Assembly (NCBI GenBank): GCA_944392105.1
Contig: CALXVM010000003.1
Span: forward strand, 40,735-104,734
DNA: 64,000 nucleotides
Source of the DNA: an uncultured Clostridia bacterium
Lineage (GTDB): Bacteria > Bacillota > Clostridia > TANB77 > CAG-508
Reading direction: 5' to 3'
Made by a program: the position numbers and the translations under genes. Positions 3,682 to 47,973 of this stretch are shown here, one piece after another; within the stretch, counting starts at the first letter, position 1; every line of letters starts with the position of its first letter. The notes under the pieces are model-generated. The model did not search any database. It was not told the origin of the DNA and worked only from the letters and a program-made list of their open reading frames with translations.

Positions 3682-4821
3682 TTAGCTTTTATCTTCTCTA
3701 TGTGTTTCTATTTTTTCTTGTTTTAATTCTTTTTCAAATTCATGAACATTTTTTCTAATTCCAAATATATCTTTATAGCCTATGGCAAGTAATGCCAAAA
3801 CTAGAATTGCAAATGATAATGCTTTCCAAATCCCGCTGTCTAGAAGAACAACTGCAAGCATTCCAAATGTAGCTGTTATTCCATATAGCATAAATACTGC
3901 TTGTTTTTGTGTATAACCTTTCTGCATTAATCTGTGATGTAAATGACCTTTATCTGCTTTAAATACTGCTTTTAAAGACTTGCCATTTTTTATTCTTCTA
4001 AATATAGCAAATAGCGTATCTAAAATTGGTAATGCAAGAACTATTATTGGTGCTATTAAAACTAATGCTGTATATGTTTTTGCAACTCCTAAAATAGATA
4101 TAACTGCAAGTGAGAACCCTAAAAAGTTTGAACCTGTGTCTCCTATAAATGTTTTAGCAGGGTTAAAGTTATATGGTAAAAATCCTGAAATTGCTCCACC
4201 TAATGCTGTAATTAGCACTATAGCAATTACTGGAGAACCATTTAATGTAAATATTATTAGTAATGATATACAAGAAATTAAGCTTATTCCAGAAGACAAC
4301 CCATCTAGTCCATCTATTAAATTAATAGCATTTGTAACACCTACAATCCAACAAACTGTAATAATATACGATAAAACTATATTAAGTTCTGCTTGTCCAT
4401 TTAAAAATGGTATTTCAAAATTTTCTATCCTTATGCCACAAGCAACTACAACTAGTGCTGCAATTATTTGCACAATTAGTTTAGTTATGCTATGTATTCC
4501 TTTTGTATCATCTATAAAACAAGTAATTCCTAAAATTATAATTCCTATAAAAAATCCTAATAATTTAAGCCATAGCTGATCTTCTGCAAAAAGTGCTATT
4601 TTTCCTTCTATGCTCATGCTTATTAAAAGGTAAATTGTTGAAACAAAGAAACCTGCTATAACTGCAATTCCTCCAAGCCTTGGCATTGGCTTTTTGTTTA
4701 CTCTTCTATCATTTGGAACATCTATAGCTCCATATTTTTTGGCTATTCTCATACTAAATGGTGTAACAACAAACGCTGTAATTAAGCCTAATAAAAATGC
4801 AATTGCAATATCTCCCCACAT
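3682..4821 (-). CDS. polyprenyl-phosphate N-acetylhexosamine-1-phosphate transferase (MraY/WecA/TagO family)
   Basis: ORF track gives 3682..4863; the start is taken at MWGDIAIAF (ATG 4821) behind GAGGGAGGAA. It has about 10 TM segments and the NAINLIDGLDGL motif typical of the family. Confidence 0.85.
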   Translation of the reverse strand: MWGDIAIAFLLGLITAFVVTPFSMRIAKKYGAIDVPNDRRVNKKPMPRLGGIAVIAGFFVSTIYLLISMSIEGKIALFAEDQLWLKLLGFFIGIIILGITCFIDDTKGIHSITKLIVQIIAALVVVACGIRIENFEIPFLNGQAELNIVLSYIITVCWIVGVTNAINLIDGLDGLSSGISLISCISLLIIFTLNGSPVIAIVLITALGGAISGFLPYNFNPAKTFIGDTGSNFLGFSLAVISILGVAKTYTALVLIAPIIVLALPILDTLFAIFRRIKNGKSLKAVFKADKGHLHHRLMQKGYTQKQAVFMLYGITATFGMLAVVLLDSGIWKALSFAILVLALLAIGYKDIFGIRKNVHEFEKELKQEKIETHREDKS

Positions 4822-5230
4822 AGTATTTCCTCCCTCGCAAATGATTATAACATTATATTGCACAAGAGTAAACTTTTTTTACGAGATTTTCACAATTGAT
4901 ACATCTATTCTTTTTAACATTACTTTCGTAACTCATCATTAGCATTTTTTATTTTATAGTTGTCTTCTATCTTTTATAGTTGTCATTATGTTTTTTCTTG
5001 AAGCTTCAGATTTGTATTACTTTTATAGTTATATAAATATTTTTATGTACTCTTATTTTGTTATTCTAATTATATTTCTATATAATTTAAAGAATTTGTG
5101 TTTTTGTATAATTTTTCCATATTTTCATATATAAGTTAACCTTTTCTTATTAATTACATGTATTATCTTTTTAATCACATTGTGAGATATAAAGCCATAA
5201 TTTGAATTTATTATTTTATAATGTTTTTGG

Positions 5231-5455
5231 GTGGTTACATTGAGATTGAAAATGTTAAGAGAGGAGCACGATTTAAAACAGACCGATTTGGCTAAAGTTT
5301 TAAATTGTAAACAAAATACTTATTATCAATATGAAGCTGAAAAAAGGCAAATACCAATTTCTTCGTTAAAAAAGTTAGCAGCCTTTTACAATACTTCTAT
5401 TGATTATCTTGTCGAATTTACAGATGAAATAACACCATACACACGAAAAAAGTGA
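5231..5455 (+). CDS. XRE-family helix-turn-helix transcriptional regulator
   Basis: LKQTDLAKVLNCKQNTYYQYEAEKRQIPISSLKKLAAFYNTSIDYL is a classical Cro/C1 HTH. The exact start is uncertain: GTG 5231, TTG 5240 or ATG 5252. Confidence 0.8.
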   Translation: MVTLRLKMLREEHDLKQTDLAKVLNCKQNTYYQYEAEKRQIPISSLKKLAAFYNTSIDYLVEFTDEITPYTRKK

Positions 5456-5525
5456 AAAGAATAAATAATTACTAAATAAGTATTATTTATTCTTTTCATT
5501 TTTATTTGTTTATGATAAAATTTTT

Positions 5526-6698
5526 TTGATAGAACATGAAAGGATGAACTTTATAATGAATAACAAGAAAAATATTTTAATAACACAAATACATATGGCT
5601 GTTGGTGGTATAGAAACAGTTTTACTTAATTTATTAAATAGCTTAGATAAAGACAAATACAATATTGACCTAGTACTTTACTATCCACGTGGAGAATTTA
5701 TAGATAAAATTCCTTCTTGGATTAATGTTATTCCTGTATGGGATAACACAAAACATAAAACCTTTTGGAAAGACATAATAATGTCAAGAAATATTGTTAA
5801 AAGAGTTTTAAAAAATTTATTAGTAAATAATTTAACAGTTAAACATTTTGTATCTAAAAAACAATATGATGTTTCTATATCTTTTTGTGGGTACCATGTA
5901 TTTTCAAATGCTTTTGCTGCAAAATCTAATGCTAAAAAGAAATTAATATGGGTTCATGCAGATTTTGCAAAACAATTTAAATTAAGAGAAGAATTTAGAA
6001 AACAATTTAAAAAAATATATAAACAATATAAATATTTCGATAAAATTGTATGTGTTAGTGAATCTGCTTGTGATGAATTTAAGAAATTCAAGCCAGAACT
6101 TTCTAATAAATTAGACTATTGCTGGAATATAATTAAAGAAAGAGAATATCCAGACTCTAACGAAAATATAAAATTACAAGACGGATTTAATTGCATTACT
6201 ATTTCTAGATTAGTAAAAACAAAAGGTATAGAAAAACTAATAGACTTAGCTAAAATGATAAAAAGAGATAATTTAAAATGTCATCTATATGTTGCAGGAG
6301 ACGGTGCTCTTCGCCCATGGTTAGAAGAACAAATTAAAGAAAATTATCTTGAAAATTATATAACATTACTGGGAAATGTCATTAACTTAGTTCCAGTATT
6401 CAAAAAATGTAACTTATATATTTCACCATCAGATTTAGAAGGATTACCTACAGTCATTGTAGAAAGTCTGTTAGAAGGAATCCCTGTTATTGCAACACCT
6501 ATAACCGGTACCATGGATATATATAACCACATGGCACCTCAAGGTTCTATGATTCTCTCAAAAGATACTTCTGCAGAAAGTCTATACGAATGTTTAAAAA
6601 CAGCATTAACTGCCTCTCCTTTTAAACCTTTTAAATTAGATATTGATAAAATAAATTCAGAAACTTTAAAAAGGTTCGAAGCTTTTTTAGGAAATTAG
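5526..6698 (+). CDS. GT4-family (GT-B) glycosyltransferase
   Basis: C-terminal EGLPTVIVESLLEGIPVIAT (E-x7-E) motif and an N-terminal GGIETV loop. The true start is probably ATG 5544 or 5556. The last two codons and the stop (GGA AAT TAG) lie inside the repeat element at 6690. Confidence 0.8.
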   Translation: MIEHERMNFIMNNKKNILITQIHMAVGGIETVLLNLLNSLDKDKYNIDLVLYYPRGEFIDKIPSWINVIPVWDNTKHKTFWKDIIMSRNIVKRVLKNLLVNNLTVKHFVSKKQYDVSISFCGYHVFSNAFAAKSNAKKKLIWVHADFAKQFKLREEFRKQFKKIYKQYKYFDKIVCVSESACDEFKKFKPELSNKLDYCWNIIKEREYPDSNENIKLQDGFNCITISRLVKTKGIEKLIDLAKMIKRDNLKCHLYVAGDGALRPWLEEQIKENYLENYITLLGNVINLVPVFKKCNLYISPSDLEGLPTVIVESLLEGIPVIATPITGTMDIYNHMAPQGSMILSKDTSAESLYECLKTALTASPFKPFKLDIDKINSETLKRFEAFLGN

Positions 6699-6985
6699 GG
6701 ACAGGTCATTTCTTCCCGATTTGGGAAATTAGGGACAGGTCACCATTTCTAAATTTAAGAAAAAATAAATTATTTATATAAAAAAAGAGTAGTATTTTTC
6801 CGTTCAACTGCGGACGCACAGCTACTTAAAATTTGTGTGAACACAAATTTTAAGACCTTGTTTCACTAAAAATACTACTCTTTTTTATGAATTATATATA
6901 ATTAAACCTATTTTCTGTAAATTTATAAAGCGTGACCTGTCCCTAATTTCCCAAATCGGGAAGAAATGACCTGTCCCTAATTTCC
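6690..6985. mobile_element. MITE-like nested-palindrome element, full copy A (296 bp)
   Basis: Perfect 54-bp terminal inverted repeats: 6690..6743 GGAAATTAGGGACAGGTCATTTCTTCCCGATTTGGGAAATTAGGGACAGGTCAC and its exact reverse complement at 6932..6985. Each TIR holds two direct copies of GGAAATTAGGGACAGGTCA. The interior carries an 18-bp-stem hairpin (6781..6886) that encloses a second hairpin (6825..6854). No ORF. A near-identical copy lies at 59019..59322. Confidence 0.85.
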
Positions 6986-7441
6986 AATCTTCTCTTTCAA
7001 TTTTTTAATAAAATTCTCTGTATTGCTATGATATTCGTTTGGAATAAAGTTTCTTGCTTTTTCCACTATATCATCAATGTTATCTCCATCTTTAAATTCT
7101 AATATGTAGCCTTTTGCCACAAATGCGTTTATTAATTCTTCTTGGTGGTCGTCTACATGTTCATCATATTTTTGTAGTCTTGCACAACCTATTATCTTTT
7201 TACCTTTTTTTAATGGTTCTACTATAGAGCCAGTTCCTCCATGTGTAATAATTAAGTCTGCTTTATCTACTAATTCCGCCATTTCTTGGTATGACATAAA
7301 TTTCATTATTTTCATTTTATTACTTGTATATGGAGTATTGCCTGCTTGAACTATTATTTCGTCTTGTATATTTGATTTTTCTATTGCGTCAAGTAGCCTT
7401 GTAAATGGCTCTGCTTGTGTTCCTAAAGTTACTAAAATCAA
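6977..7441 (-). CDS. PssE/Cps14G-type glycosyltransferase subunit (Glyco_tran_28_C / Alg13-like)
   Basis: ILVTLGTQ...ITHGGTGSIVE motifs. The start is taken at TTG 7441 behind GGGGGTGGA, overlapping the upstream stop (TTGA). The stop and last two codons (GN*) lie in the right TIR of element A. Confidence 0.8.
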   Translation of the reverse strand: MILVTLGTQAEPFTRLLDAIEKSNIQDEIIVQAGNTPYTSNKMKIMKFMSYQEMAELVDKADLIITHGGTGSIVEPLKKGKKIIGCARLQKYDEHVDDHQEELINAFVAKGYILEFKDGDNIDDIVEKARNFIPNEYHSNTENFIKKLKEKIGN

Positions 7442-7926
7442 TAAATCCACCCCCAATACTCTGCTTTTGGATAAAATTGTAACATACTTTCCCACTGTAC
7501 AACAAATGTTGTTGCTATAGGATATACCATTTTTCCTGCCATTGTAGGACTATTTTGTTTAGCAAAGCTTTCTATAAATATTACTTTTCTTCTAAATAGT
7601 CGTGCTATGTAGCACATAGGAACTGCTGTATGTGTACCTGTTGTTACAACTACTTTGGGTCTATATTTACAAAATAGATAAAACGATTTAATTATATTAA
7701 ACAAAAACTTAAATATGTAAGGGAATAAATACTTTCTTGTTCCATAAATTAAATACTCTGTTTTATATTTTTCTTTCATATTTGTTGTAACACCTGTTTT
7801 TTCTGTTACTAAAACATAATTGTAGTCATTAAAGATTTTCTTTAGTTGTAGTAATTGAGTTAAATGTCCACCTACACTTGAGATAAACATTACTCTTTTT
7901 CTTGTATCTTTTTCCTTCTTTTTCAT
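7438..7926 (-). CDS. PssD/Cps14F-type glycosyltransferase subunit (Alg14-like)
   Basis: VMFISSVGGHLTQLLQL motif and a membrane segment. It is translationally coupled to the Alg13-like partner downstream. Confidence 0.8.
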   Translation of the reverse strand: MKKKEKDTRKRVMFISSVGGHLTQLLQLKKIFNDYNYVLVTEKTGVTTNMKEKYKTEYLIYGTRKYLFPYIFKFLFNIIKSFYLFCKYRPKVVVTTGTHTAVPMCYIARLFRRKVIFIESFAKQNSPTMAGKMVYPIATTFVVQWESMLQFYPKAEYWGWIY

Positions 7927-12868: not shown

Positions 12869-12897
12869 ATTATATCGTTAATTTGTAAATAAGTCAA
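12869..12897 (-). promoter_or_regulatory. sigma-A type promoter of nrdD (TTGACT-17-TATAAT)
   Basis: On the minus strand, the -35 TTGACT is at 12897..12892 and the -10 TATAAT at 12874..12869, with a 17-nt spacer, about 50 nt upstream of the ATG. The -35 lies 2 nt from repeat element B. Confidence 0.55.
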
Positions 12898-12899: not shown

Positions 12900-12959
12900 G
12901 GAAATTAGGGACAGGTCATTTCTTCCCGATTTGGGAAGAAATGACCTGTCCCTAATTTC
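12900..12959. repeat. 60-bp hairpin derivative (copy B) of the GGAAATTAGGGACAGGTC element family
   Basis: GGAAATTAGGGACAGGTCATTTCTTCCCGATTTGGGAAGAAATGACCTGTCCCTAATTTC. This equals the outer part of the left TIR joined to the outer part of the right TIR, forming 27-bp perfect arms. It looks like an internal-deletion derivative. Confidence 0.8.
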
Positions 12960-13053
12960 TAACTTTTTTCTTATTTTACTATTCCCTTTTAATAATTTTT
13001 ATAGTATAATATTAATAGTTGTGAAAATTCTTCAAGTTTAGGAGGTGGGTAAT

Positions 13054-30316: not shown

Positions 30317-30426
30317 ACATATCTCTCCTTTTTTGGAAATTAGGGACAGGTCCCAATTTCCGGTTTTCAGAAATTGGGGACAGGTCACGATTTCCAAGTG
30401 TGTCGTGCACACCGTTTACGACATAT

Positions 30427-30455
30427 ATTATACACCGGATATCCGTAGTTAGCAA
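30427..30455 (-). promoter_or_regulatory. promoter TTGCTA-17-TATAAT inside element C, reading toward aspS
   Basis: On the minus strand, the -35 is at 30455..30450 and the -10 at 30432..30427, with a 17-nt spacer. This is the only recognisable promoter between the terminator and the aspS start. Confidence 0.5.
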
Positions 30456-30491
30456 GAGGATTTTGTTAAGCTTATGCTAATAGGTAAAAAT

Positions 30492-30528
30492 AAAAAATAC
30501 TAATCTCTTTCTGAAATTAGTATTTTTT
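30492..30528. terminator. bidirectional Rho-independent terminator inside element C (ends the adhE transcript)
   Basis: 12-bp stem AAAAATACTAAT / ATTAGTATTTTT with an A-run before and a T-run after. Confidence 0.7.
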
Positions 30529-30645
30529 AATTAATCTATATATTTTATAATACAATTTTCTCAATACACTCTTGAAATTCTTTTTGAAAGTTATTTTTTC
30601 GTGACCTGTCCCCGATTTCCCGATTTGGGAAATTGGGACCTGTCC

Positions 30646-33249
30646 CTAATTTCCATAGTAGCTATCTAATAATATTTGTTTTAGTTCGCTAACTAGTGGA
30701 AGTCTTGGGTTTGCTGTTGTGCATTGGTCTTCAAAGGCTCTATCGGCAAGCATATCTACTTTTGCTAGGAATTCTTGTTCATCTATTCCTGCTTCTTTAA
30801 ATGATTTTGGGATGTTTAAATCATTGTTTAATTTTTTAATTTCTTCAATTAATGAGTTTACTCCTTCTTCATTTGTGTATGCAGGGAAGTTCATCCTTCT
30901 TGATAAGTCTGCATATTTTTGGTCTGCTATAAAGTATTCATATTTAGGAAATGAGACAAATTTTGTTGGCATTTGGCTATTATATCTTATTACATATGGT
31001 AATAGTATTGCATTAATTCTTCCATGTGGCAAATGGAATTCTGCTCCTATTTTATGAGCTAGTGAGTGGTTTATTCCTAAGAAGGCATTTGTAAATGCCA
31101 TACCTGCTATTGTACTTGCATTATGCATTTTTTCTCTTGCTTCTTTGTTACTTCCATTATTGTATGCTTCTCTTATATTTTTAAATACAAGTTCTACTGC
31201 TTTTTCTGCTAGTCCATCTGTGTAGTCTGATGCCATATTTGAAACATAGCTTTCTATTGCATGTGTTAATACGTCCATCCCTGTATCTGCTGTAATTGAT
31301 TTAGGTAGGCTCATAACTAAGTCTGGGTCAACTATTGCTACATCTGGTGTTAATTCATAATCTGCTAAAGGATATTTCTTATTTTGAGTTTTATCTGTAA
31401 TTACTGCAAATGATGTTACTTCTGAACCTGTTCCAGATGTTGTTGGTATTGCTACCATTTTTGCTTTTATTCCCAATTTAGGGAATTTATATGTTCTTTT
31501 TCTTATATCCATAAATTTAAGTTTCATACCTTCTGGGTCTGCTTCTGGGTGCTCATAAAATAGCCACATTCCTTTTGCTGCATCTATTGGGCTTCCTCCA
31601 CCTAATGCAATAACTACATCTGGCTTAAACTCTTGCATTAGTTTTACACCTTTGTTTATTGTATCAAAAGATGGGTCTGACTCAACATCTGAGAATATTT
31701 CTGAGTGAACATATTCTTTTCTCTTTCTTAAATAATATAAAATTTTATCAACATATCCTAACTGTACCATTGATGGATCTGTTACTATAAATGCTCTTGT
31801 TATATCTGGCATTTTTTCTAAGTATTGAATAGAACCTGCTTCAAAATATATTTTTTCTGGAACTTTAAACCACTGCATATTTACCCTCCTTTTAGCAACT
31901 CTTTTTATATTTATTAGGTTTACACTTGATACGTTTGCTGTTGTTGAATTTCCTCCAAATGTTCCACATCCTAAAGTAAGTGATGGCATATTAGTATTGT
32001 ATATATCACCAATTGCTCCATGTGTAGATGGTGAATTTACTATAATTCTTCCTACCTTTACTGTTTCGGCAAATTTTTGAATTGTATCTCTATCTTCTGA
32101 GTGTATAACTGCAGAGTGTCCCATTCCTCCAAATTCTATTAATTTTTCTGCTAAATCTATTCCTTCATCTGAATTTTTAACAATATAGTATGCAAGTACA
32201 GGACTTAACTTTTCTTTTGAAAATGGATATTCTATACCTACACCATTTTCTTTTAATACTAAAACTTTTGTATCTTTTGGAACTTCTATTCCTGCTTCTC
32301 CTGCTATTTTATATGGACTTTGACCAACTATAGCAGAATTTAAAGCCCCATCTTTTTCTTTTATAAACATTGTATTTCTTAGTCTACTTGTTTCTTCTTC
32401 AGATAAGAAATAGCAACCTGCTTTTTTCATTAATCTTTCGAATTCATCTTTAATTTCTTCGTCTACTATAACAGATTGTTCTGATGCACAAATCATTCCA
32501 TTGTCAAATGATTTTGAAAGTACTAAGTCATTTACAGAAGTTTTTAATTTAGCAGTTTTATCTATATAACATGGTACATTTCCTGGTCCTACACCTAATG
32601 CTGGCTTTCCGCATGAGTATGCAGATTTAACCATTCCGCTTCCACCTGTAGCTAAAATTAAATTCACCCCAGGATGATTCATAAGAAGTGTTGTTGCTGT
32701 AACTGATGGTTCTTCTATCCATAAAATACAATTTTCTGGTGCACCTGCTTTTATAGCAGCATCTCTTAAAATTTTTGCTGCTGCCACACTACATTTTTGT
32801 GCTGATGGATGAAAGCCAAAAATTATAACATTTCTTGTTTTTGCTGCAATTAATGACTTAAACATTGTTGTTGAAGTTGGATTTGTAACTGGCGTTACAC
32901 CTGCTATAATGCCAATTGGCTCTGCAATTTCTTCATATCCTTCTTCTTCGTTTTCATTAATTACGCCAACTGTTTTATCATACTTTATGCTATGGTAAAT
33001 ATATTCTGTTGCAAACATATTCTTAGTTATTTTGTCTTCGTAAATTCCTCTTCCTGTTTCTTCAACTGCCATTTTTGCAAGTTCCATATGATGTTCTAAT
33101 CCTGCCATTGACATTTGTTTTACGATATTATCTATTTGGTCTTGGTCCAATCTCATATATTCTTTAGATGCTGTTTTGGCTTTTTCTACTAAGTCATCTA
33201 TCATTTTGCTAATTCTGTTTCTTTCTTCTTCACTAACTGGATTTGCCAT
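30646..33249 (-). CDS. adhE: bifunctional acetaldehyde-CoA/alcohol dehydrogenase AdhE
   Basis: 867 aa: an N-terminal ALDH domain and a C-terminal Fe-ADH domain ([10 protein letters not shown], HxxxH region). AAAGGAGG RBS. The last two codons plus the stop lie in the right terminus of element C. Confidence 0.95.
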
Positions 33250-34020: not shown

Positions 34021-34080
34021 GGAAATTTAGATCTGGTCCCAATTTACTAAAATCGGAAATTTGGATCTGGTCCTAATTTC
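34021..34080. repeat. degenerate remnant (copy E) of the element family: two diverged hairpin units
   Basis: GGAAATTTAGATCTGGTCCCAATTT ... GGAAATTTGGATCTGGTCCTAATTTC. It abuts the dps stop codon at 34082. Confidence 0.6.
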
Positions 34081-34081
34081 T

Positions 34082-34516: not shown

Positions 34517-34607
34517 ATAAAACCTCCTAAAAATAATACTTATATTAGTATTTACAATTTTTATAAGGTTTATACAGTAAATTATAATATTAATTCTCTT
34601 AACGTAG

Positions 34608-35084
34608 TTATCTTTTCAAATTCTTTAGTATATTTTTCATTTCAATTACATCATAAAATGGAATGTTAATTCCCTTTTTGGCTAGCTTTATTACATTTAT
34701 GGATGTTTCTATTATTTCATTCTTTAGACTTTCTGTTATTTCTACATCTTGTTTTCTATTTTGATATTTACTTTCTATGTACTCCTCTGTTGTTGGAAAG
34801 ATATTTTGTATTAAAAATGCCTTTTCTTTTCCTAAAACTTTACCAAAAACAAAGTTATAAACTTTTTTTCTCTTTTTTTTCTTATTTTCATATATACCTT
34901 TGTATTTATCAACTTTACTTGAAATTGGAACGAACCATATTATCTCTTCATTTTCTGGGTCATTAAAACAAAAATAGCAAGGTCTTTTATTACCATTTTC
35001 TTTATTTTGCATTAATTTATAGCATTTAAATATGTCAAAAAAATCATCTTTTATAAAGTAAAATTTTCCGTTTTCTACTTTCAT
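34608..35084 (-). CDS. type III toxin-antitoxin system toxin, ToxN/AbiQ/CptN-superfamily endoribonuclease (158 aa)
   Basis: True start MKVENGKFYFIKDDFF at ATG 35084 behind GAGG. The motifs KFYxI..., NKRPCYFCF, IWFVPISSKVDKY and AFLIQNIFP follow the ToxN/AbiQ pattern. It is preceded by a terminator and tandem RNA repeats. The ORF-track version 34608..35282 wrongly extends through the repeats. Confidence 0.8.
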   Translation of the reverse strand: MKVENGKFYFIKDDFFDIFKCYKLMQNKENGNKRPCYFCFNDPENEEIIWFVPISSKVDKYKGIYENKKKKRKKVYNFVFGKVLGKEKAFLIQNIFPTTEEYIESKYQNRKQDVEITESLKNEIIETSINVIKLAKKGINIPFYDVIEMKNILKNLKR

Positions 35085-35102
35085 TCTTACCTCATTTCCA
35101 AC

Positions 35103-35133
35103 AAAAAATCTACCTTCGAAAAGGTAGATTTTT
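35103..35133 (-). terminator. Rho-independent terminator between antitoxin repeats and toxin gene
   Basis: 10-bp stem AAUCUACCUU / AAGGUAGAUU with a UUCG loop and a U6 tail on the minus strand. Confidence 0.85.
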
Positions 35134-35135
35134 AT

Positions 35136-35245
35136 TAACATTTGTCCACCTACGCATTTATTTGTCGCAAGTAGGGTTGCGAGTAACATTTGCACACCTA
35201 TGCACTTGTACCCCGCAAATAGGGTTGCGGCTAACATTTGATTTG
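35136..35245 (-). ncRNA. type III antitoxin RNA: 2 full + 1 partial tandem repeats of 48 nt
   Basis: Units lie at 35136..35183 and 35184..35231, with a partial unit at 35232..~35245. The period is exactly 48 nt and about 36 of 48 positions are identical. CAAAUGUUA is conserved at every unit boundary. The internal hairpin UCGCAA/UUGCGA versus CCGCAA/UUGCGG is kept by a compensatory pair. Confidence 0.8.
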
Positions 35246-35280
35246 GACAAGATACATTTTGTATCTTTATTATTATATTC

Positions 35281-35310
35281 ATTATAACCTTTTTTATTAA
35301 TAAAAGTCAA
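35281..35310 (-). promoter_or_regulatory. promoter TTGACT-18-TATAAT of the type III TA operon
   Basis: On the minus strand, the -35 is at 35310..35305 and the -10 at 35286..35281. It is followed by a short 5' hairpin at 35267..35249. Confidence 0.6.
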
Positions 35311-35403
35311 TATCTTTTGTTTATTTTTTATTAGAAGTTACTTTCTCTTAATATATTTTATTTTTCAATTGACCAGAACTTTTTTACAACTCTAATTTAT
35401 TCT

Positions 35404-36843
35404 CTATAATCTTTTTTCTAAAACTTTTTTTGATGAAATTTTTATCTTCTTTACTCCTTTTATTTGCAAAACATGTTTATTTTCGATTTTTCTTTTTATA
35501 ATATAATCAACTGAATATGCAGACATTATAAACATAAATATTTGTGCTGTATATGCATATCTAGGTGTGCATTCAATTAACAAATAAACTCCTGTATATA
35601 CCAATAAAATTATAAGTAATAGAAATTGTTGATTACTCATATTTTTTCTATTAATCCATATTGCTAGTATAGATAACAATATAAATACATAAATAAATAG
35701 TTGGTTAATTTCATCTACAAGTTTTATTAAAGCATTGGCAGATATTTGTTTTCCTAATATATGTATAGATTTATCATTTAAATATGATAACGACCATCCT
35801 ACATCTGATGTTGCCCAAAAATGTTGTAATTTGTGTATAAATAATCTAGGTAATTTATCTATTGAGCCTATTGTATAATTATAAACCAAATTTTTCTTTT
35901 CACTTTCGGTTAAATTAAAAAATTCTTTTCCTAAGTTTTTATTATAGTCTCCCATTCTTTCTTGGTTAAATCCTACTGCAAATTTGTATAAAGTCTCTGT
36001 ATTTTTTAGTCCATTTGGACTAAGTCCACTATATTGAAATCCTAAAGAAACTATAGTAGTAATACTAAAATATACAATAGCCATAATACCTAGATTAACT
36101 AAACTTCTTTTTAACATTCCTTTTTTATATATTAATAATGTAAATAATATAATAGAGGTAATTGTAACTATAGCCTCTGGTCTTATTATATTTCCAATGG
36201 CTAAGCAAACTCCTATAAGTGTAAACTTTAATTTTTCGTTTATTTTTTTAGCTTTTTTCGAAATTAATAACCAAATGGCCAACAAGAACATAAAAGATGA
36301 TATATGTTGATTACTTAAAACACTATTAAATAGTAGTGGAAATGGAAAAAACATATAACAGCAACTTACAATTCTTGCAGCTTTTTCACTTGTAAATTCT
36401 TTTGCAAGTAGGTATACAAATAGTACAATTCCTGCTGAAAATAAACAGTTAACTATTTTTATAAGTAATGGTCCTTTTACAATTAACATTAAAATATACA
36501 TAAACATGGTATAACCCATTTGATATCCATATCTATTCATATATTCAGATTCTGTAATTACATTCCAGTTTCCATCAAGCATGTCATTTGCCATATTATA
36601 CATTACTGCATAGTCACTTTGTATGGGTGTTTTAAATATAAATACCACAATTAGCCTTAATATAAATGCTACTATAAATAGAACTAGTGCAAATTTAGGA
36701 ATTTTTATTTTATATGCAATAAAAATAATTCCTCCTAAAGTTACTAGACTTATAATTGGAAATTTAAAAAAATGACTGTAAAAGGCTAATCCTAATAGTA
36801 TAAATAATAAATAGATTAAAATTTTTCTTATTTTTTGATTCAT
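35404..36843 (-). CDS. GT39/ArnT-like (GT-C fold) membrane glycosyltransferase
   Basis: 479 aa with about 11 TM segments and a layout resembling PMT/ArnT-type enzymes. No catalytic motif verified. Confidence 0.55.
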   Translation of the reverse strand: MNQKIRKILIYLLFILLGLAFYSHFFKFPIISLVTLGGIIFIAYKIKIPKFALVLFIVAFILRLIVVFIFKTPIQSDYAVMYNMANDMLDGNWNVITESEYMNRYGYQMGYTMFMYILMLIVKGPLLIKIVNCLFSAGIVLFVYLLAKEFTSEKAARIVSCCYMFFPFPLLFNSVLSNQHISSFMFLLAIWLLISKKAKKINEKLKFTLIGVCLAIGNIIRPEAIVTITSIILFTLLIYKKGMLKRSLVNLGIMAIVYFSITTIVSLGFQYSGLSPNGLKNTETLYKFAVGFNQERMGDYNKNLGKEFFNLTESEKKNLVYNYTIGSIDKLPRLFIHKLQHFWATSDVGWSLSYLNDKSIHILGKQISANALIKLVDEINQLFIYVFILLSILAIWINRKNMSNQQFLLLIILLVYTGVYLLIECTPRYAYTAQIFMFIMSAYSVDYIIKRKIENKHVLQIKGVKKIKISSKKVLEKRL

Positions 36844-36924
36844 ATTAATTACTCCGTTTTATTATAATATTTTTCTTCTAACATCCCTAACATATATTAA
36901 ATCATATTTATTAACATATTTCAA

Positions 36925-37461
36925 TCAATAGGTATTATTGCTTATGTCTATATTAAAATAATCTCCACCTCTTGCATCAAATTCTATATAAATATTGCTT
37001 TCTGTTTTAACTTTCCATAGAGCCATGTCACTTTCTATGTTGTTTTCGAATTCTATAGTTTTAATTTCTTCATTTTTAAATCCATATTCTTCTAATATAT
37101 TTTTTGCTTTTTTTATTGCGTCTTCTTCAGTTATAATATTACTTTGTATAATATTTTCTGTATCTTTTTTTTGCTCTTCTATATTATTGTATATGCTATG
37201 AGTTTTTTCTTCATTTTTTTCAATCTCAGCTACTTTTTCAGGTGCTTTTTTTATAACGCTATAAGTTTTAGTCCCTGCATAAACTATTCCTATAACCAAA
37301 ATTAAACATGCACATGTTGTTAATGCAATTTTAAAAAACGAATATTTCTTTTTTTTAACTTTTACACTTTCTATACTTTCTTTAATAACTGTTCTAACTT
37401 TAGTCGGTACTTCCTTTTCTTCTCCCAAGTCATGAAATAACTTTTTTTCTATATCATTCAT
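36925..37461 (-). CDS. anti-sigma-factor-like single-pass membrane protein with PepSY-like C-terminal domain
   Basis: Its start overlaps the ECF sigma stop (ATGA). It has a short cytoplasmic N-terminus, one TM, and an extracytoplasmic domain (ITEEDAIKKAKNILEEYGF...). Confidence 0.6.
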   Translation of the reverse strand: MNDIEKKLFHDLGEEKEVPTKVRTVIKESIESVKVKKKKYSFFKIALTTCACLILVIGIVYAGTKTYSVIKKAPEKVAEIEKNEEKTHSIYNNIEEQKKDTENIIQSNIITEEDAIKKAKNILEEYGFKNEEIKTIEFENNIESDMALWKVKTESNIYIEFDARGGDYFNIDISNNTY

Positions 37462-37988
37462 TAATAATTCTCCCCTTTTTCTATAATATTTTTGATTTTT
37501 TGAATTGCTCTTGTTCTTTTAGTTTTTACAGTATTTATTTTTAAATTTAGTACTTCTCCTATTTCTTTGTCTGTAAATCTGTTCATATAATATAAAATTA
37601 CTATAGTTCTATCCTCTTCTTTTAATTTATTGCTTATAAATTTAAAATCTAATTTTATATTGGATTTTTCAATACTACTATCATTTATGCTTTGAGCATT
37701 TGCTATTTCTTCAAACGGTATTAAGTTTCTTTTTTTATTTCTTTTATAAATTAAATTTGTTTCATTTATTAAAATTCTTATTAACCAAGTTTTAAAGTAC
37801 TGATTTTCCTTTAATTTTCCTATGTTTTTATAAGCTATAATAGTAGTTTCTTGTATTGCATCATATACGTCATCATCGTCTTTTAATCTAGATTTTGCAA
37901 TATAATATAATTCTCTTTCCACCATTAACATAAGTTTTGTAAAAGAATTTTTATCTCCATTTTTTGCTTTTTCTACTAATTCCTCCAT
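37461..37988 (-). CDS. ECF-type sigma-70 family sigma factor
   Basis: Region 2 (AIQETTIIAYKNIGKL...FKTWLIRILINE) and region 4 HTH (FTDKEIGEVLNLKINTVKTKRTRAIQKI). Confidence 0.85.
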   Translation of the reverse strand: MEELVEKAKNGDKNSFTKLMLMVERELYYIAKSRLKDDDDVYDAIQETTIIAYKNIGKLKENQYFKTWLIRILINETNLIYKRNKKRNLIPFEEIANAQSINDSSIEKSNIKLDFKFISNKLKEEDRTIVILYYMNRFTDKEIGEVLNLKINTVKTKRTRAIQKIKNIIEKGENY

Positions 37989-38196
37989 GTTTCCTCCACT
38001 TTTATTTTCACACTTATTATATATATTTAGATAGCTTTTATGCCTTAAAAAGTTTCATTTTTATTTTATTTTTTGAAACTTTTTATAATTTATATATTCT
38101 CTAATATGTAATACAATTATAACATTTAAATTTTATGATAGTTATCATAAATTAAATTTGTTTAATTATTAATTGATATTATAGGAGGTTTTATTA

Positions 38197-38670
38197 ATGA
38201 ATAAAAAAATGATATTAGCCGTTATTATTTTTATTTTACTTATAATCTTGACGTTTGCGTTATTATTTTTGTTTAAAAGTCATTATATTAATAATTCGGG
38301 AAAAAAATTTGGAAATATGAGCAATGGGTCTGTAAATCATAGTACAAACGAAATTGTAAATACTAGAAAAATAATTATAGAACACTATGATTTATCACAA
38401 CACAAGATTTTAAAATCTATTGAAATACTAAATAAAGATAAAATAAATACTTTAACTAATATGATACAAGATTATGAAACCACACCAGAACATATAAAAT
38501 TACATGTTAATGGGAAATATGTTGTAAAGATGCCAGAAAATGTAATAATTTCATTTGATAATTTAGATGACACATATGTAAAATACGAAAATAGCTCGTT
38601 TAGTGATATCGTTTCTATTTCTCCTGAGTTTAAACCAATAGTTGCAGATTTACTAAATATAATTTATTAG
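38197..38670 (+). CDS. hypothetical membrane-anchored protein
   Basis: AGGAGG RBS, an N-terminal TM, and a 157-aa N/I/K-rich ectodomain. No family recognised. Confidence 0.5.
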   Translation: MNKKMILAVIIFILLIILTFALLFLFKSHYINNSGKKFGNMSNGSVNHSTNEIVNTRKIIIEHYDLSQHKILKSIEILNKDKINTLTNMIQDYETTPEHIKLHVNGKYVVKMPENVIISFDNLDDTYVKYENSSFSDIVSISPEFKPIVADLLNIIY

Positions 38671-38862
38671 CATTTTTTCTTAATTTAATAGATTTGCTTT
38701 TGATTATAATCCTTTTGTTTTTCTAATGTATACTACTCTATTACAATTTCATTTAAAGTTCTATGTTTCGTTCAAGTTACAAAAAGTTACATTTTTTTAT
38801 CTTTACAAGTTTAATTTCTTTGATATAATTTTTTTATAATAAATTTGAAAGGTGGGATACAT

Positions 38863-40107
38863 ATGTTAAAACTCAAGTATAACAAATTGATTACTACTTT
38901 GTTTATTCTTATTATTTTATTTGCTTTTTTTATTCCTAATGTAGCTTTAGCTAATCATGCATTTTCATGTGGTGGAGATTATGCTAATTTTTCAACATGG
39001 GATGATGCTATAACAGCTGCTAATTATTATGCTACAATGGGATACAGCTCATTTTATAGTACTGATCCTAGTTATTCTACTCTTAATGGTAATTTCAGTG
39101 ATGGTTGGAGAAGATTGCATAGTGATATATTATTTTTCTCTTCTCATGGAAATTCAAACGGAGTATATTTTCCAGATTCTTCTCTTGTAGTTTCAAATGG
39201 AAATTCTAGCAGTGTATATACTAAAAATGTTAATTGGGATTATGTACGATTAGTTGTTTTCGGAGGTTGTGAAACAGCTGCTGGTACATATAATATTACA
39301 AATGATACTCATGATAGAAAAGTAGAAGTTTCTATAGGTTGGCAACGAACTATAGGAAATGTTTCTCATTCTCAGTGGTTAGATCGCTTTAATTCTAAAA
39401 TAAATAGCGGTGCTACAGTTGGTGAAGCAGTAGACTATGCACATAGTTTTACCTATAACGACCCAAATGTAAAAAGAATTGTTAGAAGAGGTTCTGAAAA
39501 TTTAAGATTAAGACTTACTAGAGCCTTTAGTGTTGATGAATTTTCATCTAATTCAAATTCTAAATTTGGAAATAATTTAAAACCTTTAGAGAAATTAAAC
39601 ACAATAAATTTAAATAATAAGAAGATATTGTTTAATAGTAACAATGATATAGACAATATTATAAATGTTATAAAAGAAAACAATCCTTCTTTCAATAAAA
39701 ATGATTATAAAATAGATGTTATAGAAACTTCTTATGATAATGATTTTACAATAGACATTTATCTATTAGGAAGTAACAATAGCATAACAAATTATGGATA
39801 TACTGTAAATGTTTCTGACAATATAGTAACAAGTATTGTAGATAATACTTATGATATTAATCAAGTTAATGTTTTAAATTCTAATAGCAATGTAACAAAT
39901 GAAATTGAAAACTTAGCAAAGTCTGAAGGATTAGATAATTTAAAAAATAACTTAAAACCTGAATATCAAGATAAATGTAAAATATTAGACCAAAATACAA
40001 GTATTCATCAAGATTTAAAAAATAATTCAACATATATAGTTGTATTAACTCATTATACATTAGATGGAGAAAGTTCTGCTGTAGATGAGTATTTATATTA
40101 TTTATAA
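38863..40107 (+). CDS. secreted protein with possible His-Cys (caspase/clostripain-like) protease core
   Basis: ATG 38863 behind AAAGGTGGG. The signal peptide ends in VALA-NHA. FFSSHGNSNG and VVFGGCETAAG lie about 40 aa apart, an arrangement like the HG...C dyad of clan CD peptidases. The C-terminal half is N-rich. Confidence 0.45.
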   Translation: MLKLKYNKLITTLFILIILFAFFIPNVALANHAFSCGGDYANFSTWDDAITAANYYATMGYSSFYSTDPSYSTLNGNFSDGWRRLHSDILFFSSHGNSNGVYFPDSSLVVSNGNSSSVYTKNVNWDYVRLVVFGGCETAAGTYNITNDTHDRKVEVSIGWQRTIGNVSHSQWLDRFNSKINSGATVGEAVDYAHSFTYNDPNVKRIVRRGSENLRLRLTRAFSVDEFSSNSNSKFGNNLKPLEKLNTINLNNKKILFNSNNDIDNIINVIKENNPSFNKNDYKIDVIETSYDNDFTIDIYLLGSNNSITNYGYTVNVSDNIVTSIVDNTYDINQVNVLNSNSNVTNEIENLAKSEGLDNLKNNLKPEYQDKCKILDQNTSIHQDLKNNSTYIVVLTHYTLDGESSAVDEYLYYL

Positions 40108-40164
40108 TAAATTCAATCAAAAAAACACCAAACGGTGTTTTTTTGATTTGTATATGATTATCTC

Positions 40165-40909
40165 TTAATCATATAAGTTCTTATTTTCTATCTTTAATAT
40201 AACCGTATTTATTACAGTTTTTATATTCGGTTTTTGTATCTCATAATTGTTAAAATATTCTTTTATTGTATTTTCTTCGCAATTATAATACATAGCTTCT
40301 GTTGCTCGAATTACACTACTTTTAACGCTTCCTATTTTTATTATATTTTTTTGCAATTATGGGATATATATCTTTATTCATATTTACTATTACGTTAGAA
40401 TATTCTGTATAAACAATATATATAATGTCTTCTAAATATTGTGTTCCTTTATGCGAAAAATTATATCTTAAATAATGCAATTCACTTTGAATATTTAATT
40501 TTAATTTATTTTTCTTTTCAAAATAATTTTTTTCCAAAATTATTTTATCTATAGCGTTACATAATTCATATATTTCTGTCTGCTGTGATAATATAGTATA
40601 AATCATTTCATTTATTATATATTTTTTTTCAGCATAATCATTATATTTTAATTTTATTATAAGACTTTTTTTGTATTTTCGTCTTTTTTTTGGCATAATT
40701 TTATCTAAGTTTAAGGCAATATTGCGCAATGGCATTTTTAAATTTAATAATATTATGTCAATTTTTTCATCATTATTTAAAGTTCTTATAGCATCATTAA
40801 TGTCTGTTGATAGCTTAATTACTCTTATATCTTCCGAAATTCGATTTATCTGTGTCATTATTTCATTAGCTTCATAAATATTATCATCTATAATAAATAC
40901 ATTTACCAT
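40165..40909 (-). pseudogene. Spo0A-like regulator (degenerate receiver + Spo0A C-terminal domain) split by a frameshift
   Basis: ORF 40322..40909 ends ...HKGTQYLEDIIYIV...DIYPIIAKKYNKNRKR*. ORF 40165..40356 continues in another frame with ...SVKSSVIRATEAMYY...KPNIKTVINTV. Together they reproduce the Spo0A_C pattern. The frames switch in an A-rich run around 40322..40356. The receiver phospho-acceptor position reads LLNLKMP (Asn instead of Asp). Confidence 0.65.
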
Positions 40910-41586
40910 TTTTATTACCTCTATATTATTAGAGTTAAAAATGATTATAAACGTTTCAAAATTTAATAAATATATGTAAATATTTTATATTTATGAGACT
41001 TATATTCTATCTTTTTAATCTATCAAATCACTAATTTACCTTTGCAAAAAGTTTAGCATGTCCCCAAAAACTACTACTTATAAAAAGTTTTTTATAGAAT
41101 TTTTCTTTTGTTCATCTAATTCATTGTCGTTATAAATCATCCATTAATACTTTATAAGCAGTTTTTTCTTTCATTGCGTTGCTTATAAATCTACTAATTA
41201 ATAAAATACTTACGGTCATAATATCTATTAACAATATCATAAATTTAGTTTTTTAGATATTTTCCTCTTTTTTAGATTTTCAAAAAATAATAAAATATTT
41301 TTATATTTTGGTATATTCTATTTCAAGTATTATTAAAGTAAAATATATTCACAAAAGGTTTAAAAAATTTAACACTTTCACAACTGGCTTGTTTCTAATT
41401 ATCAAATAACTCTTTTACTTATTTATGTTATGATAATAATTATCAATTTGTATTTTGAGTTTTTGTGTTAGTTCATTTGTTAAATCTTCAGAATCTTTCA
41501 TTTGTAAATATTTTTCTATAACATCTTTGGGAAAAATACTATAATCACTATAGGACTCTATATCTTCAGTATTTATACTATTTGAG

Positions 41587-41922
41587 CTAATAACTTCTCC
41601 GTTCTTTATATGTAATTTTATATAGCTTTGTATAAAAATTGTTAAGTTTTAATACTTGATTTTCTATATTGTAGTTAGCAATTAAAACAACTATATAAAG
41701 GTCTGTATTTTCTCCATTTTCAATTTCTTCAATTTTGCTTGTTGAAATAAATGTTTCTAATTTTTCTTTTTCTAATAAGTGATTTATTAGAAATTCACTA
41801 TCTCCAACTAATTGCATTTTTGGTGGCAAAGTCATATAAAAAAGAATATAATAGCCTACAAATAAACCCAAAATTATTGCGACTAACATTATAAGTATAG
41901 TTAAAAGATATTTTTTTTTCAT
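41587..41922 (-). CDS. small membrane-anchored hypothetical protein (possibly truncated)
   Basis: 111 aa with an N-terminal TM. An open frame continues downstream after a frame change (41420..41586), suggesting decay. Its upstream promoter is shared with the 42563 gene. Confidence 0.4.
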   Translation of the reverse strand: MKKKYLLTILIMLVAIILGLFVGYYILFYMTLPPKMQLVGDSEFLINHLLEKEKLETFISTSKIEEIENGENTDLYIVVLIANYNIENQVLKLNNFYTKLYKITYKERRSY

Positions 41923-41962
41923 ATTTTTCCCCTTTTATTTTCCCATAATTTATTTCATATTA

Positions 41963-41991
41963 ATTTTACTATTTTATCTTGTAAAATGCAA
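41963..41991 (-). promoter_or_regulatory. promoter TTGCAT-17-TAAAAT (repeat copy 1)
   Basis: On the minus strand, the -35 is at 41991..41986 and the -10 at 41968..41963. The same 38-nt block ATAGTTTGCATTTTACAAGATAAAATAGTAAAATTAAT recurs at about 43000..43036. Confidence 0.5.
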
Positions 41992-42013
41992 ACTATCGTT
42001 TTATTATAACATA

Positions 42014-42436
42014 TTACTCAATCTTTTTTAACTCTTTTTTGGTATAATTATAATTTAACAGTATAAATAATAAACCGAAATAAAATACCAATAAAATTAT
42101 ACTAGTAAAAAAAATGAACCCTGTCATATTTTTATCTTCTATCATATATAAGTTCGATGCATTATCTATTTTTGTATTCTCTTCTTTTAGATAATTTATT
42201 TCATATTGTTGGAAATAAATTATATCAAAATCCCTTACCGTATCTGCCCATCTGTTTGTTTTTAAAAATAATATATATGAATCACTTGGCAATCCTAATT
42301 CTAAATTTAAATTTTCATTTTTAAAAAACATAATAACATAATCTTTGATGCACCATTTAAAGCTAATTATTATTAAGGTAACAATCAAAATAAATATTAG
42401 TATATTTGTAAATATACATACAAATTTTTTCATCAT
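42014..42436 (-). CDS. hypothetical two-TM membrane protein
   Basis: 140 aa with TM segments at both ends. A decayed paralog lies at 47974..48223. Confidence 0.45.
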   Translation of the reverse strand: MMKKFVCIFTNILIFILIVTLIIISFKWCIKDYVIMFFKNENLNLELGLPSDSYILFLKTNRWADTVRDFDIIYFQQYEINYLKEENTKIDNASNLYMIEDKNMTGFIFFTSIILLVFYFGLLFILLNYNYTKKELKKIE

Positions 42437-42562
42437 ATCTCCTTTTCATATTTTGAACTGGTTTTGTCTAAAATAGATTTTATGCTATATAATTCTTATT
42501 TTTATAATTCTATATAACAATATTTCTCTAATAATAAAAAACCGCATAAATTCAAGAAACAA

Positions 42563-42985
42563 CTATTCCATTTTGGGTATAATCTTATATTTTATTATAA
42601 ATATACAAAATAGTAATATTATAAAATAAGGCAATGAATATTTGATAAAAGCTTCTCCTTTTCCATTATGTTCTCTTACAAATTCAGGAGATACACCTAT
42701 TTCTATACTTTTATAAAACAAACTTGGAAAATATTGCATAATTTTAACTTCATTATTTTCCATGTTATAATCAGCTTCTAGAGTGATTATACTAAAATTT
42801 CCTATACTATATATTCCTTCATTTCTTAATGCTTTTCTATTTTTATTATTACACCACATTACGCTATCATAATGTAAATATATTGTAAACAGTGTTTGGA
42901 ATATTCTAATAATTGCTATGCTAACTATTAGAATTATAAAGATTATCAAAACAAAATATTTTATTTTTTTTACATTTTCCTTCAT
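42563..42985 (-). CDS. hypothetical two-TM membrane protein (paralog of 48322..48696)
   Basis: 140 aa. It aligns along its length with 48322..48696 (IAIIRIFQ(T/A)L(F/L)TIYL(H/Y)YDSV ... NGKGEAFIK(Y/C)SLPYFIILLF). The paralog lacks a 16-aa segment. Confidence 0.5.
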   Translation of the reverse strand: MKENVKKIKYFVLIIFIILIVSIAIIRIFQTLFTIYLHYDSVMWCNNKNRKALRNEGIYSIGNFSIITLEADYNMENNEVKIMQYFPSLFYKSIEIGVSPEFVREHNGKGEAFIKYSLPYFIILLFCIFIIKYKIIPKME

Positions 42986-43000
42986 ATTTTCCCCTTATTA

Positions 43001-43029
43001 ATTTTACTATTTTATCTTGTAAAATGCAA
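43001..43029 (-). promoter_or_regulatory. promoter TTGCAT-17-TAAAAT (repeat copy 2)
   Basis: On the minus strand, the -35 is at 43029..43024 and the -10 at 43006..43001, upstream of 42563..42985. Confidence 0.5.
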
Positions 43030-43203
43030 ACTATATAAACTATTTATTTTTCTTAATCTACAATCAATTCAATATTTTTACCCAAATTTATAGTCGGCAT
43101 AGTAATATACTCTTTTTATAGCCCACAACAAAAGTGGATTAAAGTGGAAAAATTTGACTTTATGTTACAATTTGGTATAATTATACATATTGGAGGGGAT
43201 TTG

Positions 43204-44229: not shown

Positions 44230-44292
44230 AATATTTTATAGTTTGTGGAAGTACACTTAATATAAAAAATATATAATTAGGAGTAATTTTAC

Positions 44293-45012: not shown

Positions 45013-45053
45013 TATACATTATATATTAGCTATTTATTCTTATTAATATTTAA

Positions 45054-45419
45054 TTATTTCACATGCTTATTTTCATAACTGCACACGATTGTATAAATAA
45101 TAAGCTTTAAGCTTGGTTTTAAATTTTCTGGCAACATAAAATATTTTGATATAATATCTATTGGTGTATTATTATACATTGTAGTAATACACTGCTCTAT
45201 GCACCATTTTATTGATAAATAAGATTTTTCATCATGCCTTTTTGCTATTATTGGAAAAACATTTCTTGTCAAATTATCTATAGCATTTTCATTTATTATG
45301 CATAAACATATGGCTTCTTTTAAATATTTATATCCTTTTGTTCCTCTTCTAAAATCAAATTTGCACAACTCGTTTTCTATGAATTGCTTGATGGCTTTTT
45401 CATTTGTGATTTTATTCAT
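45054..45419 (-). CDS. stand-alone Spo0A C-terminal-domain protein (no receiver)
   Basis: TKGYKYLKEAICLCI...NVFPIIAKRHDEKSYLSIKWCIEQCITTMY...KPSLKLIIYTIV. Its start overlaps the end of the GH25 gene by 8 nt. Confidence 0.65.
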   Translation of the reverse strand: MNKITNEKAIKQFIENELCKFDFRRGTKGYKYLKEAICLCIINENAIDNLTRNVFPIIAKRHDEKSYLSIKWCIEQCITTMYNNTPIDIISKYFMLPENLKPSLKLIIYTIVCSYENKHVK

Positions 45420-46191: not shown

Positions 46192-46416
46192 TTTATAATC
46201 CCTCCTTTAATATATTCTCTATATACTTCCTCACTAATTTGCTTTTTTACGAAGTAATATTCTAAAATTATTATATTTATTTTTTTAAATATTTTTTATT
46301 AAGTGGTTTAATATAGATTTTTATGGTAAAAATAACTTTTTTATCTACATTCAACTACTTTATCTTCAATAGAACTTCATTTAAGTTATTATTATAAATG
46401 AAAGGAGGTGTTAAAT

Positions 46417-46953: not shown

Positions 46954-46965
46954 ACTCGAAACAGA

Positions 46966-46997: not shown

Positions 46998-47017
46998 GCC
47001 TACTATTATATATTTTT

Positions 47018-47269: not shown

Positions 47270-47303
47270 TCTCTCTCCTCTTCTAATACTTCAATCTGTT
47301 AAC

Positions 47304-47949: not shown

Positions 47950-47973
47950 ATCAAGTACTTCTAATATAACATA

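Follow-up and report, generated by a model that had tools for sequence, protein, structure and literature searches.

A REPIN-like repeat family in an uncultured Clostridium, probably served in trans by a TIRYT-class RAYT

Five loci in a 64-kb stretch of DNA from an uncultured Clostridia bacterium (contig CALXVM010000003.1; hereafter the window) carry copies of a single family of short palindromic repeats. We consider these loci – here copies A to E – to be members of a REPIN-like family, that is, one resembling the inverted-doublet hairpins of repetitive extragenic palindromic (REP) sequences, for which a REP-associated tyrosine transposase (RAYT) of the TIRYT class acts in trans; we put the probability of this explanation at roughly 0.78. 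Systems of this kind are already known, and the dense Clostridium example is new. The loci had been noticed earlier from the sequence by itself (the original prediction) and described as a dispersed, non-coding family with inverted ends that would need an enzyme in trans, a description that our analysis upholds. Comparisons draw on contigs and loci, numbered L004 to L076, from related genomes and conspecific strains.

The family is built from a unit of ~27 nt, an imperfect palindrome whose 18-nt 5′ half, GGAAATTRGGGACAGGTC, is strongly conserved and whose 3′ half is loosely complementary to it (79 distinct units were compared). Units are mostly arranged as direct doublets with a 34-nt period. 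The 18-mer GGAAATTAGGGACAGGTC, with up to three mismatches allowed, has 14 matches in the window against 0.02 expected, a number reached in none of 100 shuffles, and all 14 fall within copies A, B, C and D; a scan of the window with a 15-mer revealed copy E, built of variant units, as the sole extra locus. All five loci stand at the coordinates given in the original prediction. First and last bases of the unit (G/A versus C/T) gave no clear signal of covariation among the 79 distinct units, so that pairing in the outer stem of the hairpin is without support from covariation. The copies and their parts are as follows.

Copy A, 6690..6985: 296-bp composite of two units, a ~190-nt palindromic mosaic interior and two inverted units
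Left end of A, 6690..6743, plus strand: doublet of direct units, period 34 nt; the glycosyltransferase open reading frame (ORF) 5526-6698 uses the TAG at 6696-6698 as its stop
Core of A, 6781..6886: 19-bp inner inverted repeat, 6781-6799 / 6868-6886, around an asymmetric ~70 nt
Right end of A, 6932..6985, minus strand: perfect complement of the left end; TAG at 6977-6979 (minus) is the stop of the PssE-like ORF 6977-7495
Copy B, 12900..12960: REPIN-like 61-bp hairpin in which one unit faces one inverted unit; the single mismatch is the outermost base
Copy C, 30335..30654: two doublets in inverted orientation around 208 bp of native intergenic DNA
Left doublet of C, 30335..30390, plus strand: downstream of the aspS promoter and ahead of the ribosome-binding site of aspS
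Interior of C, 30391..30598, minus strand: adhE-aspS intergenic DNA, with a promoter-like TTGCTA-17-TATAAT at 30455-30427 pointing at aspS
Right doublet of C, 30599..30654, minus strand: TAG at 30646-30648 (minus) is the adhE stop codon
Copy E, 34021..34081, minus strand: a tandem pair of palindromic units from a second subfamily (type 2, GGAAATTGGGACCAGATC and its complement), starting 0-1 nt after the dps stop
Copy D, 59019..59322: 304-bp A-type composite; TAG at 59314-59316 (minus) is the stop of an LdcA-like gene

The terminal inverted repeats (TIRs) of ~54 bp that had been described for A and D as perfect or near-perfect, each with two direct units, are indeed perfect: 54 nt in A (6690-6743 / 6932-6985) and 56 nt in D, where the two units are again 34 nt apart. 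A 13-bp hairpin (6825-6854) lies at the centre of the core of A, and the whole copy folds into one 296-nt hairpin (-101.9 kcal/mol, z = -21.8). Rfam at gathering thresholds returned no family in the window; at E-value thresholds A matched only plant miRNA-precursor models, far under their cut-offs, as a generic long hairpin would. Read as its reverse complement, the interior of D matches that of A (aligned stretches 96% and 92% identical), as had been claimed, though this is the outcome of an inversion polymorphism found at one site between strains (see below) and not a separate design. For the smaller copies the earlier description needs more amendment. The hairpin at B is present and extends over 61 bp rather than 60. 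The supposed cargo of C is native intergenic DNA, given that the sister genome has, at the orthologous site, a 92% match to the first 84 nt, which contain the aspS promoter; the outer unit of C is that of A and D, in C as a near-perfect palindrome, GGAAATTAGGGAC-AG-GTCCCAATTTCC. Copy E, read before as a degenerate remnant, consists of second-subfamily units that differ by 1-2 mismatches from those flanking one RAYT allele (P0009, in L075).

Beyond the window the family was sought with the 18-mer in one genome per species. It is almost confined to metagenome-assembled genomes (MAGs) of uncultured gut Clostridium, above all MGYG-HGUT-04539 (CABVAF01); ~20 further AT-rich loci carry it in a sister MAG and in other Clostridium MAGs, and the 18-nt half-unit is identical at dozens of unrelated loci with unrelated flanks. 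High-GC matches (L006, L007, L010, L016, L022 and L027) were set aside as chance singletons. The commonest form of the family in the sister genome is a REPIN-like hairpin of 60-130 bp, not the 300-bp element. A single metagenome contig scan with the 30-nt end gave one locus only, L065, a third A-type copy at an unrelated site and 83-86% identical to A and D; identities of this order between sites mean that there was no recent burst. A blastn search of A against plasmids and phages found no match. A more distant relative (L068, 2360-2420) carries, upstream of udg, two diverged units paired as GGTTCTAATTTCCC-ATTTTA-GGGAAATTGGGACAGATT, and judging from this pair the family may extend further, in a different arrangement.

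The link to a transposase comes from what lies between the ends at other loci. Double-unit inverted ends flank an ORF of 266-277 aa in L020, L011, L037/38 and L041/42 (266-269 aa in L020 and L011, where the end-to-end spans are 6103-7250 and 4299-5469, respectively), and homologues in L075 (265 aa) and L076 (257 aa) are flanked by type-2 or strongly diverged units. Inverted repeats thus stand on both sides of the gene in L020, L011, L037, L041, L075 and L076: the transposase gene with the family's own ends that the original prediction proposed to look for exists in six related genomes. Its product matches Pfam Y1_Tnp (1.6e-15) and the NCBIfam model NF047646, "REP-associated tyrosine transposase", with 81 bits in L020 (cut-off 80) and 58 bits, below the cut-off, in L011. 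The HxH (HVH), YxHxNP and WSSY motifs are invariant in alignments of 7 and of 44 sequences. A search of PDB with a single sequence found no match, and a profile of seven sequences was required; its best match is 4ER8, E. coli TnpA(REP) (E = 4e-6). Fold comparison of an AlphaFold2 model (pLDDT 87.7) likewise ranks 4ER8 first (TM 0.76), ahead of IS200/IS608 transposases, and the model predicts for residues 168-275 an additional all-helical C-terminal domain. Weak matches to the helix-turn-helix (HTH) families HTH_23 and HTH_28 were obtained for L011 and for 7 and 3 of the 44 homologues, respectively; there was no match to Bac_DnaA_C.

The gene order RNaseJ-GH15-[ends-RAYT-ends]-radA-disA is kept in six genomes, down to 47% RAYT identity, and RAYT homologues on plasmids are few (17 of 72,556 records, at most 42% identical). 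By this behaviour the RAYT appears to be a resident chromosomal gene, probably in single copy. Two divergent alleles occur at one locus in one species, which suggests occasional replacement. The case is that of L041 (4001-4828) and L075 (6001-6798), whose GH15 genes are 98.2% identical at the nucleotide level and whose RAYT proteins are only 65% identical; it looks like replacement of the RAYT allele at a fixed locus within one species. The units differ with the allele – type 1, GGGACAGGTC, in L041 and type 2, GGGACCAGATC, in L075 – and in L011, L075 and L076 alike each RAYT is accompanied by its own unit variants. Many RAYT contigs are only ~1.0-1.1 kb long, suggesting that assemblies break at the flanking repeats. 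The idea that A and D are deletion derivatives of the RAYT unit was rejected, their interior having no similarity to the non-coding parts of RAYT loci.

We envisage the system as follows. Two inverted doublets form a bracket around nothing (B), a palindromic mosaic core of ~190 nt that moves along with them (A, D and L065), native DNA (C) or the RAYT gene itself. The Y1/HUH enzyme would recognise the unit, probably as a single-strand hairpin by analogy with E. coli TnpA(REP), the C-terminal helical domain helping in this recognition, and by cutting and rejoining DNA it would move units in trans. Insertions would survive mostly at the extreme 3′ edge of a gene, its product being lengthened there by no more than Gly-Asn before the in-frame TAG, and hairpins that have settled there may act as 3′-end or 5′-untranslated-region (UTR) structures on termination, mRNA stability or translation termination. 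Both the mobilisation by the RAYT and the regulatory role of the hairpins are what we infer from this arrangement.

Among known systems the nearest are the TIRtrons of Di Nocera et al. 2013 (PMC3733652), in which RAYT-like Y1 genes (TIRYTs) stand between long inverted repeats; these repeats often share the motif GGGGWSAS, and some form moderately abundant families of singles, dimers and clusters (PMC3733652). TIRYTs correspond to TnpA(Y1) subclass 2.1, whose members are long and carry an HTH at the C-terminus; the same subclass takes in RAYT Group 1 as defined by Bertels et al. 2017, PMC5581495 (Quentin et al. 2018, PMC6006769). Group 1 occurs in Clostridia, and abundant flanking 16-mers were reported for Groups 2 and 3 only (PMC5581495). 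Features rather than phylogeny would place the enzyme described here in subclass 2.1 / Group 1: it is long (257-277 aa), has a C-terminal extension predicted to be helical, with weak HTH_23/HTH_28 matches in some members, and its gene is bracketed by long inverted repeats containing GGGGWSAS. That motif is found as GGGGACAG in TTGGGGACAGGTC variants of the flanking units (right end of L020, L037, L041 and the inner units of C); the commoner variant is AGGGACAG. As in TIRtrons the repeats are dispersed and moderately abundant, and occur as singles, dimers and clusters. Differences are nonetheless evident. Clostridium is absent from the text of Di Nocera et al. 2013; with 5 loci in 64 kb the family is dense here; each end is a doublet of a unit that is itself partly palindromic, and so nearer to REPs than the "TIRs unrelated to REPs" of that paper; and a mobile palindromic core is present in a composite derivative of ~300 bp. 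The original prediction had set REP aside as a name for the family, a judgement we reverse, since the associated enzyme is a REP-associated tyrosine transposase; the ends carry the TIRYT motif (PMC3733652).

The REP/REPIN-RAYT systems of Proteobacteria (4ER8; the Pseudomonas REPINs; Bertels & Rainey 2011, PMC3116915) have a single-copy, syntenic, vertically inherited RAYT within inverted repeats, as appears to be so here. Shared with them are dispersed extragenic palindromic units, inverted-doublet hairpins (B resembles a REPIN), absence of target duplication, long persistence at orthologous sites, a terminal TAG that serves as stop of the upstream gene, and closeness to stop codons. In contrast to them, there is no GTAG head here, for which reason we do not file the family as a GTAG REP; only one palindrome arm is well conserved; and the RAYT is of another subclass, with an extra C-terminal domain, in a low-GC Firmicute host. 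The bacterial interspersed mosaic elements (BIMEs) of E. coli are mosaics of REP units in alternating orientation separated by a few interchangeable motifs. The organisation here resembles theirs, since the combination of modules P, Q and R and a core changes from strain to strain and from site to site; the motifs are unrelated in sequence.

The age of the insertions was judged against a sister MAG that is 86-90% (about 87%) identical to, and colinear with, parts of the window. Sites B and C are occupied in both genomes – B by three units in the sister MAG and two in the window – and these copies predate the species split. Site E is empty in the sister MAG, and site D is empty in L066, where the uracil-DNA glycosylase (UDG) is 95% identical, and in L067; the empty sites that the original prediction proposed to look for exist in sister taxa. 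The end of LdcA reads ...EPCVE-stop in L066 and ...DCIK-stop in L067, there 15 nt before udg. In the window, site D reads GTT|GGAAATTAG...AATTTCC|AAATAA, and deletion of D in silico gives GTT AAA TAA (V-K-stop), as in L067, with nothing duplicated. A target-site duplication, which the original prediction also proposed to look for, is therefore lacking at the reconstructed insertion, and from this clean junction we take the family to insert in the manner of HUH enzymes, leaving the target unduplicated. At A, B and C the flanks are TT...AA, an extension of the palindrome and not a direct repeat.

At site C of the sister MAG (L019 5845-8000, L004 1-590) the doublets are >2.7 kb apart, and the DNA between them has an open frame of >646 aa whose N-terminus is hydrophobic and pilin-like; against the 208 bp in the window, this marks the bracketed segment as a variable region.

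Conspecific contigs, defined as those encoding proteins identical to the window's, reveal variation of another sort. At site A the 190-nt interior of L055, L061 and L063 is 100% identical to that of the window and inverted exactly between GGGACAGGTCAC and GTGACCTGTCCC; the orientation in L056-L060 is that of the window. The three inverted haplotypes lack one outer 34-nt unit, and L056 is without the same unit yet in the window's orientation. Since the three-unit haplotypes share an inverted repeat of only 20 nt, the orientation is not an assembly ambiguity. By flanking single-nucleotide polymorphism (SNP) distances (in a matrix from which the L060 row was left out) L055, L061 and L063 do not form one clade, which leaves recurrent inversion or recombination. 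Site D shows the same in L053, with an inverted interior and single units. Combinations of interior modules also differ by strain or site – (Q,R), (P,R) and (P,rcQ), with (Q,rcP) in L065 – pointing to nested inversion around the 19-bp inner inverted repeat, to exchange between copies, or to both. The spacing of the genes around B is unchanged in five contig places among the matches listed (22 contigs read).

To place the elements relative to genes, 53 of their outer ends were surveyed, both in the window and at related loci. There are ~17 independent sites at which a long co-directional ORF (140-1170 codons) enters the element in frame 0 and stops at the TAG of GGAAATTAG, adding Gly-Asn to its C-terminus; one end is used in frame 1 and none in frame 2. 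The window itself has such ORF ends at 6698, 6977, 30646 and 59314. Seven more ends follow the gene's own stop, which lies 0-3 nt before the element in six cases and overlaps its first 2 nt in one. Flanks are mostly TT^AA. GTAG REPs donate TAG stop codons to upstream genes in like manner (PMC3733652), and E. coli REPs at most 15 nt from a stop codon lower translation, according to work cited in PMC12306157. At their other side some copies abut promoters. B lies 3 nt from the -35 box of nrdD and D, by its left end, 10 nt from that of udg; both promoters (12869-12897 and 58980-59008, minus strand) are near-consensus TTGACT-17-TATAAT, with 11/12 matches, and both contain the 13-mer AATTGACTTATTT. 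We considered this 13-mer, to the left of B and D, as a part of the element and rejected it: it is the native -35 region, present in L066, where the element is absent. In an aspS transcript the left doublet of C would be part of the 5′ UTR. The element-free ldcA-udg spacer of L066 (2330-2480) holds three copies of a motif containing ATTTTAGAAC, apparently a different short repeat.

Three other explanations have to be weighed, and each fails at least one test. The first to be considered, which we regard as unlikely, is that the loci are immobile, anciently conserved regulatory hairpins, their repetition arising from shared function or gene conversion. The occupation of sites B and C in a genome 86-90% identical would fit, as would the invariant occupancy among conspecific contigs (among the matches listed) and the placement of elements exactly at transcription-unit boundaries. 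The original prediction had itself named conservation in synteny as the sign of ancient regulatory DNA; it is seen for B and C, but not for D, E or the family as a whole. D is absent from L066, despite the 95% identity of UDG, and from L067; E is absent from the sister MAG; the identical 18-nt half-unit recurs among unrelated flanks; and the same units bracket a gene of a transposase family. Slightly less probable again is an inverton, with the ends as recombination sites of an invertase and the flipping interior phase-varying its neighbours, for example the polysaccharide locus at A. The precise inversion of the interior at site A (L055, L061 and L063 versus L056-L060 and the window) and at site D (L053), in an orientation that the 20-nt shared inverted repeat shows to be no assembly artefact, would fit an inverton, and site A does lie among glycosyltransferase genes. 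However, A stands between the 3′ ends of two convergent genes and has no consensus promoter inside it, the same element type occurs at unrelated loci (ldcA/udg and L065), and no recombinase gene is listed within 2.5 kb on either side of A or D. Most members, B and the MAG copies among them, have no interior to flip, and the inverted haplotypes look like fixed strain differences.

Lowest of all, and in our opinion very improbable, stands the classical miniature inverted-repeat transposable element (MITE), in this case a DDE-type insertion sequence (IS) reduced by internal deletion and mobilised by the transposase of that IS, acting on double-stranded inverted ends. RUP, Correia/NEMIS, ERIC and Nezha are thought to be moved by DDE transposases, with target duplications. 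Our copies do resemble these in size (60-300 bp), in their long perfect inverted ends, in having no coding capacity, in their position beside genes at several genomic sites and in the long RNA hairpins they could form, and the original prediction had called them MITE-like. Yet neither a DDE enzyme nor a target duplication was found: the reconstructed D insertion has none, the sole type of gene between the ends, in six genomes, encodes a Y1/HUH enzyme, and no DDE parent IS came to light. Nor does the interior of A and D resemble the non-coding parts of the RAYT locus; the ends are built of repeated palindromic units, as in REP/BIME arrays; and the usual member in the sister genome is the 60-130 bp hairpin.

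The explanation that we prefer, a REPIN-like family served by a RAYT, has its own difficulties, and the following observations weigh against it. No RAYT gene lies within the 64-kb window, and the RAYT alleles are tied to the window's own genome solely by their co-occurrence in two samples. We know of no Group 1 or subclass 2.1 RAYT that has been shown to mobilise anything. In the survey of Quentin et al. no REP-like sequences stand beside subclass 2.1 genes (PMC6006769). Among the 79 distinct units the head is TTAG or TTGG, not the GTAG of classical REPs, and most units are poor palindromes. No empty site was seen among conspecific strains, A, B, C and D being occupied in all contigs among the matches listed, and activity looks low, given that A-type copies at different sites are only 83-86% identical. 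Finally, inversion and unit loss could result from RecA or replication slippage without any transposase, and the stop-codon pattern could be due to selection alone rather than to targeting.

REP/REPIN-RAYT systems have been studied nearly exclusively in Proteobacteria. The family described here gives the widespread but poorly understood long-form RAYTs (Group 1 / subclass 2.1, also present in Clostridia), for which two genome-wide surveys found associated repeats to be scarce or absent, a clear partner in a Gram-positive bacterium of the gut. With natural empty sites, polymorphisms of inversion and unit number, and two allele/repeat pairs, the present set of loci makes the relation between enzyme and repeat testable. 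A broader claim can be advanced only tentatively, and we think it on balance doubtful: that here, for the first time in Clostridia, a clear system of the REPIN-RAYT type is seen, driven by a Group 1 / subclass 2.1 (TIRYT) enzyme, with repeats that are dense, variable within populations and aimed at, or filtered to, the last codons of genes, and with alleles that interchange together with their own subfamilies. If the enzyme drives these events, TIRYTs would be active repeat mobilisers or recombinases, and the system would offer a workable Gram-positive REPIN model. There are practical consequences too. At ~one locus per 13 kb (5 in 64 kb) the repeats appear to break metagenome assemblies and alter predicted protein C-termini (Gly-Asn-stop), and their presence at the 5′ UTR or promoter edge of aspS, nrdD and udg matters for annotation and expression studies of the clade.

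A few further features of the window and its relatives deserve mention. A segment of ~18 kb (~34600-52600) is not colinear with the sister MAG, in which L019 joins 34573 directly to ~52642. It contains direct duplicates of ~1 kb (42033-42984 / 47982-48695, 88% identical) with ORFs of 124-171 aa that match nothing in Pfam. A protein of 782 aa in the same segment combines a peptidoglycan-binding domain with a glycoside hydrolase domain of the Rv2525c-like type. Between two convergent genes at 56794-56906 (and at ~4530-4860 in L046, L047 and L053) there are indels of 100-200 bp that vary between strains; they have no relation to the repeat family and alter the C-terminus of a 446-aa oxidoreductase-like protein (447 or 457 aa). 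In the conspecific contig L031 (476-3001) no adhE was called and aspS lies ~620 bp closer to the 142-aa gene than it does in the window, which may reflect a deletion or disruption of adhE.

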